This document shows positions 9,420 to 17,595 of a DNA stretch of 44,902 nt, piece by piece. The number at the start of each line of letters is the position of its first letter. Position 1 is the first letter of the stretch. The stretch lies in NCBI GenBank assembly GCA_964651655.1, contig CAZYVS010000005.1, positions 1 to 44,902 on the forward strand. Direction: 5' to 3'. The notes under the pieces are model-generated. The model was not told the DNA's origin. It saw only the letters and a program-made list of their open reading frames with translations, and ran no database searches. The translations under genes and the position numbers were made by a program. The DNA comes from an uncultured Candidatus Saccharibacteria bacterium (GTDB lineage: Bacteria > Patescibacteriota > Minisyncoccia > Phycocordibacterales > Zambryskibacteraceae).

Positions 9420-9534
9420 ATACAGACATTTTGACAGAAAAAGACACTGATTAGTAGTTCTGCCAGATTGATTATATAATGGTAAGCAGAAGTGATCTTA
9501 GTTTCAGAGATAAAAAGGAAAGGAGGGTTTGACC

Positions 9535-10305
9535 ATGTATCTATTGTTTACATTAGGTGTCGCAATGGTCGTGGCGCAAGTGGCCATGTTTGGCACCAGC
9601 ATTTACTTACATAGAACAATGGCGCATTATGCACTGACATTACATCCAACAGCGGCTTGGATGTTCCGTTGTCTCTTGTGGATTACCACGGGACAAAAAA
9701 CACGGGAATGGGTAGCGGTGCACCGCAAACACCACACCTTTGCGGATAGAGAAGGAGACCCTCACAGTCCGCTACTTGAGGGTTTCTGGTCCATACAACT
9801 TGGCAACGTTATTCACTACGCACGAGCACTAAAGGATAAGAATATCCTGATAAAGTACGCTCCGGATATCCGGAGCGATATTTGGGACAGGTTATTCTTT
9901 GATTATAGTCTGCTCGGTGTTTCACTGGGTATCATGCTACTTTGTACGTTCTTGGGTCTAGGATGGGGATTACTGGCCGCCGGGGTTCATGCGTTCATGT
10001 ACGTCTTTGTGTTGTCGTCATCCATCAATGGACTATGCCATTACAAAGGATACAAGAACTTTTTCAACACGGCGACCAATCTTAGATTCGTGGCACTGAT
10101 TACTGCGGGTGAAGGGTTGCACAACAATCATCACGGATTCGCGCACAGTCCAAAGTTCAGTGTACGACAGAGTGAGTTTGACCCGGCGTGGCCGATAATT
10201 AAGCTTTTGAAGATGCTGGGTTTAGCCAGAAACATTAAGAAGACCAGCTCTGAACAGGGGCTGAAGTTTAGGAGGATCAGACGCTCCATGCTTCCGCGGT
10301 CATAA
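9535..10305 (+). CDS. Membrane fatty-acid (acyl-CoA delta-9 type) desaturase
   Basis: Three His boxes HRTMAH, HRKHH, HNNHH plus GDPHSP; GGAGG RBS at 9522-9526 favours ATG 9535. Confidence 0.92.
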   Translation: MYLLFTLGVAMVVAQVAMFGTSIYLHRTMAHYALTLHPTAAWMFRCLLWITTGQKTREWVAVHRKHHTFADREGDPHSPLLEGFWSIQLGNVIHYARALKDKNILIKYAPDIRSDIWDRLFFDYSLLGVSLGIMLLCTFLGLGWGLLAAGVHAFMYVFVLSSSINGLCHYKGYKNFFNTATNLRFVALITAGEGLHNNHHGFAHSPKFSVRQSEFDPAWPIIKLLKMLGLARNIKKTSSEQGLKFRRIRRSMLPRS

Positions 10306-10335
10306 GCGCATATCTGCGCTTATGACCGCTTTGCG
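10296..10335 (+). terminator. Intrinsic terminator of the desaturase gene
   Basis: Perfect 15-bp stem gcggtcataagcgca/tgcgcttatgaccgc, 4-nt loop, T-rich tail; overlaps the stop codon. Confidence 0.8.
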
Positions 10336-10435
10336 TTTTATTCACTGAAAATAATACACATTTCATCAACAAGATATCCACCGAATTATTCAAAAAATGG
10401 GTTTGACTTTTACAAATATCAGGAGAATGATTATA

Positions 10436-10563
10436 CCAGGTCAGCTTCATTGAAGAGATTCCTTAAACACACAATTAAAGGGATCTCAAACAAATTGAGT
10501 GTTATGAGCCTCAATCAGAGATAACCCAAAATAATAAAAAGTGGAATCCTCTTCTGACACGGA
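10436..10563 (+). ncRNA. Putative 6S-like rod-shaped RNA
   Basis: Closing stem 10452-10462/10543-10554, A-rich central bubble 10463-10479/10528-10542, terminal stem ggg-atctc-attgag/ctcaat-gagat-ccc; TTGACT at 10403 upstream and a terminator downstream. Confidence 0.5.
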
Positions 10564-10576
10564 GCGGACCGCGAGG

Positions 10577-10607
10577 CGAAAATCTCCTACTCGGGGATTT
10601 TCGTTTT
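10577..10607 (+). terminator. Intrinsic terminator
   Basis: cgaaaatctcc/ggggattttcg stem followed by TTTT. Confidence 0.75.
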
Positions 10608-10625
10608 GATGTTAAAATGGAAGCA

Positions 10626-11174
10626 ATGAAGAAAGTTATCGTTATTATGGTTGTGATAGTCATCGCCGCTTTTCTATATGTCGCGCGCAACAATCCTTCC
10701 GCTCCCGTAATCGAAACTTCGGCGCCGAATGAGACCGGCGCCTTTCGTCCAGATCCATCAAATGCCACATTCACATTAGACAATGAATCTATCACTCTTT
10801 CAAAAGGGAAAAATTCGAGATCGGTTGTTCCGGGAAGCGCGCTTATAGAAGAGACAAACTTGATGGACAAATTCGCCTATGGCGATATCAACGCGGACAA
10901 CAAAGAAGACACGGTCTTATTTCTAGCTCGTTACGGCGGCGGTTCTGGAATATTTGTATATCTAGCCGGCTATGTTTCCGGACCGGTAACTTATAGAGGA
11001 TCGGTGGCTATGTTTATAGGAGACAGAATCATTCCTCAATCAATTGATGTTAGCCGGGGAATCGTAACGATAAAATATTTGGATCGCCAAGCCGGCGAAG
11101 CCTTGGCGGCTGAACCAACCGTCCTAGCGTCCAAACAATTTATCTTCAAGAACGGAGAGTTTGTGGAAAGATAA
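10626..11174 (+). CDS. Membrane-anchored exported protein of unknown function
   Basis: N-terminal TM, GDINADNKEDT Ca-binding-like loop, GGGSG; start at ATG 10626, 7 nt after an extended -10 TGTTAAAAT. Confidence 0.75.
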   Translation: MKKVIVIMVVIVIAAFLYVARNNPSAPVIETSAPNETGAFRPDPSNATFTLDNESITLSKGKNSRSVVPGSALIEETNLMDKFAYGDINADNKEDTVLFLARYGGGSGIFVYLAGYVSGPVTYRGSVAMFIGDRIIPQSIDVSRGIVTIKYLDRQAGEALAAEPTVLASKQFIFKNGEFVER

Positions 11175-17252: not shown

Positions 17253-17281
17253 TTGACATCACAATAGATAAGTGATAGGAT
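17253..17281 (+). promoter_or_regulatory. Strong sigma70 promoter
   Basis: TTGACA-17 nt-TAGGAT with extended -10 TG; same hexamers as the rpoB promoter. Confidence 0.75.
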
Positions 17282-17284
17282 GGA

Positions 17285-17562
17285 GGTGGATAAATCGACC
17301 GCTGTGACATTCGCCGTCACAAATGTCGCAGGACAGGTCGTACGAGGCCAAATCGGTTTTGTAGATGGAAAACATCTGCAAGCAATCAGCGAGTGCTAGA
17401 TATCGCTGCCTGAATCCGATTTGAAAAAACGTGGTGAGCCTCCCCACATTCCTAGATATTGCACACTGGATAACTAAGCTGCAATCCGGTGCAATCTTCT
17501 GGGGCTTGCAAGGGATGTGGTATTGGTACTAATCTAGCTGCCAGTCCACGTCCCATTTCCAC
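17285..17562 (+). ncRNA. Putative multi-domain structured non-coding RNA of unknown class
   Basis: Nine or more nested helices forming three branched domains between a promoter and a terminator; no long ORF. Confidence 0.65.
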
Positions 17563-17563
17563 A

Positions 17564-17595
17564 AGGCTCGACAATGTTGTCGGCCTTTTTATTTT
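17564..17595 (+). terminator. Intrinsic terminator
   Basis: aggc(t)cgaca/tgtcg-gcct stem followed by TTTTTT. Confidence 0.8.

Follow-up and report, generated by a model that had tools for sequence, protein, structure and literature searches.

6S RNA (RF00013) is a stand-alone RNA encoded in one copy per genome; its rod-shaped fold consists of a closing stem, a large internal loop of two strands set between G-C pairs, and a terminal stem-loop in which the apical loop may vary freely. T-box leaders (RF00230) expose, within a structured loop, a codon whose match to a tRNA anticodon spans 3–4 nt, and in the actinobacterial ileS T-boxes this specifier lies in a terminal loop. Loop–loop contacts of 7 nt are known to form stable complexes in the kissing antisense systems ColE1 RNA I/RNA II and R1 CopA/CopT, and orphan noncoding RNAs such as raiA, ROOL, and OLE were found by comparative genomics. 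To our knowledge, bacteria of the Candidate Phyla Radiation (CPR, or Patescibacteria), which have tiny genomes, possess almost no characterised regulatory RNAs, and we found no paper on 6S or comparable small RNAs in this group. Here we describe a small RNA gene on the plus strand of contig CAZYVS010000005.1 (the window, that is, the whole stretch of 44,902 nt that was analysed), which belongs to the 592-kb, 94% complete genome of an uncultured bacterium of the Zambryskibacteraceae.

The RNA shares something with each of these systems. Like 6S RNA, it stands alone, occurs once per genome, is of similar size, and forms a rod with a closing stem, a large two-stranded internal loop between G-C pairs, and a terminal stem-loop. 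Like a T-box, it presents AUG and a purine in a structured loop, where they are complementary to the anticodon of a tRNA, and, like the kissing antisense RNAs, it has a 7-nt loop fully complementary to a 7-nt loop of its putative target. With raiA, ROOL, and OLE it shares the promoter-to-terminator unit, the strong covariation, the noncoding character, the restriction to a lineage, and the lack of a known function at discovery, although it is much smaller and simpler than those RNAs (four helices, mostly without a junction) and far narrower in its spread. Taken together, the comparative data make it very probable that this is an independent small RNA gene representing a new family absent from Rfam.

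Gene boundaries, fold, and covariation

The RNA gene occupies positions 10438–10607 of the plus strand, where no open reading frame of at least 30 amino acids could be found between a fatty-acid desaturase gene (9529–10305; Pfam FA_desaturase) and the next gene downstream. As the first-pass annotation of this DNA had proposed, the unit is flanked by two terminators. The first, at 10296–10329, belongs to the desaturase gene and borders the RNA gene upstream without being part of it, and the second, at 10576–10607 (GCGAAAAUCUCC / GGGGAUUUUCGU plus a U run), is the intrinsic terminator of the RNA gene itself, present in every relative as a G+C-rich hairpin with compensating changes, followed by a U run. 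At the other end, a −35 box (TTGACT, 10403–10408; TTGACA in most relatives) and a −10 box (AATGAT, 10426–10431; GAAAAT or AATAAT in relatives) are separated by a 17-nt spacer; among the aligned relatives the hexamers are conserved and the spacer varies. Since the conserved AGGUC of the RNA starts 7 nt past the −10 box, transcription is predicted to start at about 10438 (A10438), giving a transcript of about 170 nt that comprises a structured core (10438–10574) and the terminator. The layout thus suggests an RNA that would be transcribed from its own sigma-70-type promoter near 10438 and would stop at its own intrinsic terminator at 10607.

The plus strand folds with a minimum free energy of −53.9 kcal/mol when the terminator is included (z −5.05) and of −35.6 kcal/mol when it is left out (z −3.5), and the minus strand folds worse (z −2.4). 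BLAST matched the region in 10–16 genomes of the same genus, and all 14 of the first homologues, each folded singly, yielded the same four-helix rod. In a plain MAFFT alignment, 89.7% of cells were paired, versus 37–55% with slid partners, and 14 pairs were changed on both sides. Covariance models (R1 and R2, and a later model, R3) were built for the gene, the first two of which enlarged the set to 18 genus genomes, and 21 further metagenomic loci were gathered via the neighbouring protein and so carry no bias towards the RNA or its loop. Across 31 distinct sequences, 90.3% of cells were paired, versus 38–52% with slid partners; of the 37 pairs, 22 had changed on both sides (85 cells), and none of 500 shuffles reached any of five measures. 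This alignment was fitted to the covariance model, which favours the structure, and the unfitted alignment agrees with it.

The molecule would fold as a rod that is closed by two helices, P1 and P2, and continues with a large A-rich internal loop, the helix P3, and the hairpin P4, and all four helices show covariation. P1 joins GGUC-A-GCUUC (10439–10448) to GGAGC-G-GACC (10561–10570); it is 92.8% paired, with five of nine pairs changed on both sides, and other members have a G-C, U-A, or A-U pair in place of its A10443/G10566 mismatch. P2 joins GAAGAGAUUCC (10452–10462) to GGAAUCCUCUUC (10543–10554) with one bulged C and is 91% paired, with seven of 11 pairs changed on both sides, while its UUCC/GGAA pairs bordering the internal loop are invariant. 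The 5′ strand of the internal loop (UUAAACACACAAUUAAA, 10463–10479) has 17 nt and the 3′ strand (AAAAUAAUAAAAAGU, 10528–10542) has 15 nt; over the 31 sequences the former ranges from 14 to 19 nt (57% A, 29% U, 0% G) and the latter from 13 to 18 nt (61% A). The edges of this loop (UUCC then UUAA on one strand, AAG-Y then GGAA on the other) are conserved by sequence rather than by covariation. P3 joins GGGAUCUC (10480–10487) to GAGAU-AA-CCC (10518–10527), leaving an AA bulge, and is 84% paired, with five of eight pairs changed on both sides.

Much of this rod had been drawn correctly in the first-pass annotation from the sequence of the window, including the pairing of gaagagattcc (10452–10462) with ggaatcctcttc (10543–10554), the A-rich strands of 17 and 15 nt, and the terminal arm formed by ggg/ccc, atctc/gagat, and attgag/ctcaat, and the covariation across relatives supports it. 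A proposed gtca/tgac extension of the closing stem is complementary in this sequence but only 64.6% paired in relatives, where it shows no covariation; given its 92.8% pairing and five covarying pairs, P1 is the true outer helix. An alternative pairing, aacac-caatt/aattg-gtgtt, had been put forward as a conformational switch; it is complementary here but 43% paired among relatives, which is no better than slid controls. In four loci (L047, L048, L049, and L145, the first three from genomes G045, G019, and G047) an extra hairpin of about 20–30 nt stands between P1 and P2, giving a three-way junction, and one of these hairpins ends in a GCAA tetraloop.

The apical loop and the anticodon loop of methionine tRNAs

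The most constant part of the RNA is the top of P4 (AUUGAG-U-G[UUAUGAG]C-CUCAAU, 10494–10515), a hairpin that is supported by covariation and retained in shortened variants and in distant lineages. Its lower pairs covary (one pair is UA in 17 sequences versus GC in 11, and GGAG/CUCC and CGAG/CUCG variants exist) and its near-invariant loop-closing G-C pair covaries to A-U, while the upper GAG/CUC and the 7-nt loop UUAUGAG (10502–10508) stay near-invariant. None of the first 14 sequences departs from this loop, and of the 31 distinct ones 28 retain it, among them 16 of the 17 gathered via the neighbouring protein. Additional matches to TATGAGCCTCA in genus genomes were considered as possible paralogues and rejected, as all of them lie inside coding sequence. 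The fixed loop above covarying pairs, and its retention where other parts are dropped, tilt the balance slightly towards the apical hairpin being the main working part of the RNA.

UUAUGAG is the exact complement of CUCAUAA, the anticodon loop of the methionine tRNAs. The genome encodes 41 tRNAs with 39 distinct anticodon loops, among which CUCAUAA is the only one with a 7/7 complement in the RNA, and the match coincides exactly with the apical loop. CUCAUAA is common to both tRNA-CAU genes (contig C6, 29012–29085 and 29158–29229), and in E. coli both tRNA-fMet, the initiator, and tRNA-Met have the same anticodon loop. The in-register chance of a 7-nt loop matching any anticodon loop is about 39/16384 = 0.002; the match was noticed after the fact and is for that reason treated as a lead. 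An A1-A72 mismatch identifies one of the two CAU tRNAs as the initiator, whose arm AGGCUCAUAAC is the complement, over 11 nt, of GUUAUGAGCCU (10501–10511); the 10-mer GGCTCATAAC occurs in the genome only at the initiator tRNA and in this RNA. Because of these 11 consecutive complementary nucleotides, the initiator is a better candidate partner than the elongator. The calculated duplex energy is −5.4 kcal/mol for the 7 bp and −16.3 kcal/mol for the 11 nt, and the covarying closing pair gives the P4 hairpin the geometry of an anticodon arm.

Some features of the tRNA set may be recorded here. The two CAU tRNAs, one initiator and one elongator, are the only ones in this genome and lie head to head (C6, 29012–29229), and a tRNA-Ile with anticodon UAU is encoded at C6 5463–5536, so that a lysidine-type tRNA-Ile2 is apparently not used to read AUA. 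An unusual T arm (GGAGCUGGAGCGUUACCAGC) is seen in the initiator tRNAs of two relatives, G046 and G010.

According to the above results, we infer that the RNA acts in trans and that its functional core could be the apical hairpin, a short stem presenting the near-invariant loop. UUAUGAG might then make a loop–loop (kissing) contact with the anticodon loop CUCAUAA of a methionine tRNA, and such a contact would allow the RNA to bind, sense, or withhold tRNA-Met, while the rod and its A-rich loop might serve as an additional docking module, one lost in some lineages. As a whole, a stand-alone structured RNA acting in trans through an apical hairpin that kisses tRNA-Met is our best explanation of the data, held tentatively and with somewhat less than even confidence. 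Within it, the identification of tRNA-Met or tRNA-fMet as the partner is doubtful and, like any physiological effect, speculative. The full form of the proposal, namely that a free-standing small RNA grips the anticodon loop of the initiator (or elongator) tRNA-Met by 7-bp kissing and is a trans counterpart of the T-box specifier, would be unlikely on present evidence. Relative to the T-box specifier, all seven loop nucleotides are complementary here instead of 3–4, and no switching of the codon is seen among the members of the family. Relative to the kissing antisense RNAs, the putative target is a housekeeping tRNA encoded elsewhere and not an overlapping antisense transcript; the complementarity ends after 11 nt, so no full duplex could form, and the co-variation of partners expected of such systems is not seen, the tRNA arms being constant or independent of P4.

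Several observations weigh against a tRNA partner. The complementarity is short, and the anticodon loop is universal, so that a test by intermolecular covariation is impossible. The P4 flanks do not co-vary with either tRNA-Met. Three full-length members carry the loops GUUAAAC, GCCAUUC, and UUAUAGU while the rest of their RNA is intact, which means that the loop is not indispensable and that there is no switching of a T-box-like specifier. The invariant hairpin would equally fit a protein-binding site, and the A-rich loop, which is present in distant members and therefore also old, is left unexplained. That the RNA is missing from about half of the genus, and was not found in the 300 genomes sampled in the order and class, would also be odd for an RNA that targets a universal tRNA.

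Four ways of strengthening or widening the link to tRNA were tried and rejected. Co-variation of the flanks with the initiator tRNA fails, as the tRNA arm is constant in five genomes while the closing pair of the small RNA changes. In this genome, P4 (UUGAG/CUCAA) resembles the anticodon stem of the elongator tRNA-Met; an extended duplex with the elongator was discarded, because in G014 the tRNA stem and P4 differ independently. As for specifier switching, the three deviant loops match anticodon loops over 4–5 nt only, which is the chance level. An adjoining tRNA gene as partner was also dismissed: the tRNA gene often seen upstream is tRNA-Asn(GUU) and does not have the CAU anticodon, and at the distant loci no tRNA is present.

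The same constancy of the hairpin could have another origin. The top of P4 (GAG-N-G-UUAUGAG-C-CUC), together with the internal-loop edges, might be recognised by one or more proteins, the RNA serving as a binding site or scaffold and the anticodon-loop match being a coincidence; we regard this as possible, though not likely. It would account for an upper P4 stem that is invariant on both strands, which pairing with a tRNA leaves unexplained, for loop edges kept by sequence rather than by covariation, and for the three members that have other loops and an otherwise intact RNA, and a 7-mer match noticed after the fact carries limited weight. Nevertheless, no candidate partner gene is linked to the RNA, whose neighbours differ among lineages; the adjoining 185-amino-acid protein lacks a Pfam domain, and this protein and the RNA each persist without the other. 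The exact in-register complementarity between loop and anticodon loop, given its low chance expectation, also speaks against coincidence.

Distribution and the question of 6S RNA

The RNA is patchy in its distribution, occurring in about half of one genus and in three scattered lineages of ultra-small groundwater bacteria (Zambryskibacteria and kin), with contigs that stem from Hainich, Rifle, and similar groundwater sites. The full form is present in 18 of 37 genus genomes, with one copy each, and a short form in two of the 37 (G042 and G043) and in five metagenomic loci. The short forms keep the promoter, the AGGUC, a hairpin with UUAUGAGCCUC, the P1 3′ strand, and the terminator, but P2, P3, and the A-rich loop are gone. 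G004, G052, and a number of metagenomic loci do not carry the RNA at all; in G004, L105, L119, and L122 the upstream block described below or the −35 box is left and the RNA body is cleanly gone. G004 and G052 branch within groups of RNA-bearing genomes in a tree of TypA, which indicates that their lack of the RNA is due to secondary losses. That a single genus contains the full form, shortened forms, and deletions points, as far as these genomes reveal it, to unusually fast turnover. When all species genomes were scanned for a motif and the model was then applied, three further members emerged, in genomes labelled Vogelbacteria, Taylorbacteria, and Zambryskiibacteriota PATE-6, each with its own promoter and terminator, with unrelated neighbour genes, and with the large internal loop. 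Models R2 and R3 gave no match in 150 other genomes of the order or in 150 genomes of the class; these scans scored about 21–22 first-look candidates per genome and are of limited sensitivity, so the result means that the RNA was not found there, not that it is absent.

This distribution bears on the suggestion of the first-pass annotation that the locus encodes a shortened 6S RNA or another small RNA. The second half of that suggestion holds, in that we find a structured and covariation-supported small RNA that is predicted to be separately transcribed, and the first half is unsupported. RF00013 gave no match at the gathering score in the window or the genome, none at E ≤ 10 on 10250–10700, and none at E ≤ 1 in the loci of five relatives, while the same model detects 6S RNA in 22 of 151 other Patescibacteria (142–197 nt; seven over the threshold). 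Loci L053–L069 hold such compact canonical 6S RNAs of other Patescibacteria. In common they have GGGAG...CACCCACCUGG and, within the bubble's 3′ strand, a small hairpin, and neither is found in the candidate RNA. Canonical 6S RNA is likewise not detected elsewhere in this genome or in 24 genus genomes, and 16 order genomes yielded one weak partial match; as the canonical RNA was not found in these genus genomes and hardly in those of the order, the two RNAs do not show the mutual exclusion that would speak for one replacing the other in function.

A weaker version of the idea is that the open A-rich rod mimics a melted promoter and sequesters the sigma-A holoenzyme, being analogous but not homologous to canonical 6S RNA. 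In shape and size the RNA, with its core of 137 nt, comes close to the compact canonical 6S RNAs (142–158 nt) detected in other Patescibacteria, the two A-rich loop strands are unable to pair with each other and lie between invariant G-C pairs, each genome carries a single copy, and the loop is retained in the distant members. Furthermore, the niche is unoccupied, since RF00013 detects so little in this genus and order. We nevertheless consider this reading improbable. Besides the failure of RF00013 and the missing canonical signature, the arrangement of closing stem, bubble, and terminal stem-loop, present in 31 full-length sequences and in the three distant ones, is lacking in at least six short variants with an intact promoter and terminator. 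Members of the G046/L140 branch have a 5′ loop strand that is U-rich (pyrimidine-rich) instead of A-rich, and in L140 this strand looks, by eye, able to pair partly with the A-rich 3′ strand. The broad vertical conservation typical of 6S RNA is not seen among the 18 full and two short forms of the 37 genus genomes with their nested losses, and clean deletions have recurred within a single genus. Finally, conservation of the RNA is highest in its apical loop, a part that does not matter in known 6S RNAs.

A divergent signal recognition particle (SRP) RNA was also considered and rejected, as the genome has no detectable Ffh or FtsY and the RNA lacks both a GNRA tetraloop and an AGCA motif. No SRP RNA (RF00169, RF01854), Ffh M domain (PF02978), or SRP-type GTPase (PF00448) was found in this genome, where motif scans for DTAGR and GxxGxGKTT returned only L31, ABC, secretion, and RuvB ATPases. 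PF02978 was found in 0 of 201 sampled phylum genomes and RF00169 in 0 of 61 relatives; PF00448 matched only P-loop scraps in 121 genomes, and all 14 control genomes matched. We found no paper stating that these bacteria lack SRP.

Gene neighbourhood and biological meaning

The promoter of the RNA gene is preceded by a conserved block of about 40 nt with palindromic halves (10357–10398; consensus CACA..ACAGGATATCC-N-CCGAATTATTCGAAAAA), which lies 5′ of the −35 box and whose sequence is kept at all 14 aligned loci; in relatives it contains the palindrome GGATATCC. No second copy was found outside coding sequence in this genome, the sole look-alike, at the end of recA, not being counted as one. 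The block outlasts the precise loss of the RNA body in L070, L105, L119, L122, and G004. It resembles a putative protein-binding site and could be a regulator site or an UP-like element. A second promoter-to-terminator orphan RNA of about 300 nt lies at 17253–17595 of the window. The upstream block is absent from its promoter, no sequence relation to the RNA studied here was seen, and a promoter motif common to the two was sought and not found.

Downstream, the RNA precedes, in the same orientation, a gene pair encoding a 185-amino-acid membrane-anchored protein (p185) and TypA/BipA in 15 of 17 genus relatives and in the 21 metagenomic loci. The next gene is a HisRS-like gene in G019, which in this window sits 3 kb further on, and a cytochrome-b5-like gene in G009. 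The upstream neighbour varies among relatives. tRNA-Asn(GUU) recurs upstream of the RNA, p185, and typA at L038, L040, L041, L044, L047, L050, L072, L122, and L192, and the desaturase gene takes its place in this window. Where the RNA is deleted p185 stays, and where p185 is absent the RNA stays.

Given this arrangement, a leader or attenuator of the p185–TypA/BipA operon, in which binding of tRNA-Met would decide between termination at 10607 and read-through in the manner of a T-box, has to be weighed. The RNA lies directly upstream of the operon and is co-oriented with it, its terminator ends 19 nt before the next start codon, and its loop holds a codon-like AUG. The next gene, however, has its own extended −10 promoter (TGtTAAAAT, 10610–10618, followed after 7 nt by the ATG at 10626; feature 10610–10628) and appears to give a leaderless mRNA. 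TGnTAAAAT or TATAAT stands 6–8 nt ahead of the next start codon at all aligned loci, the bases between vary, and no Shine-Dalgarno sequence separates the RNA terminator from the start codon there. RNA-less genomes have this promoter element too, and so do G019 and G009 in front of their different downstream genes. The leaderless layout of the p185 gene ahead of typA can be read at L010–L019, L048, L050, and L070–L074, and also at the substitute genes of G019 and G009. Unlike a T-box, the RNA has no T-box sequence, acceptor-binding bulge, or conserved antiterminator. RF00230 gave no match at E ≤ 10 here or at E ≤ 1 in relatives, and a UGGN bulge is not conserved, the sole UGG of the RNA lying in GUGGAA, which is GCGGAA in half of the members. 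The only alternative pairing proposed, that of the first-pass annotation, is not conserved, and a systematic search for other antiterminator pairings was not made. In G009 and in the Vogelbacteria, Taylorbacteria, and PATE-6 members, the RNA precedes unrelated or converging genes. Unrelated neighbours, together with a promoter and terminator of its own in the distant members, make the RNA an autonomous gene rather than a leader, and a role as a leader is very improbable.

A mini-mRNA or dual-function RNA, in which the loop AUG would open a tiny reading frame (MSLNQR* here), can hardly be credited: although AUGAGCCUC (Met-Ser-Leu) is conserved and a stop follows within 4–11 codons in all members, the peptides vary in length and frame past the third codon, the would-be codon substitutions are compensatory partners of the P4 5′ strand, no Shine-Dalgarno sequence is properly spaced, and stops are trivial in an A/U-rich loop.

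Our results provide a new RNA family with firm comparative support, comprising a promoter, a terminator, four covarying helices, and a near-invariant loop, and remove a tempting but unsupported 6S annotation. The binding of its apical hairpin to tRNA-Met is a concrete and cheap hypothesis. If the contact were real, it would represent a kind of riboregulation not described for canonical tRNAs, and a tRNA-gripping small RNA could titrate or sense the initiator tRNA pool of these ultra-small bacteria, whose regulatory equipment is minimal, or shield it from anticodon nucleases.

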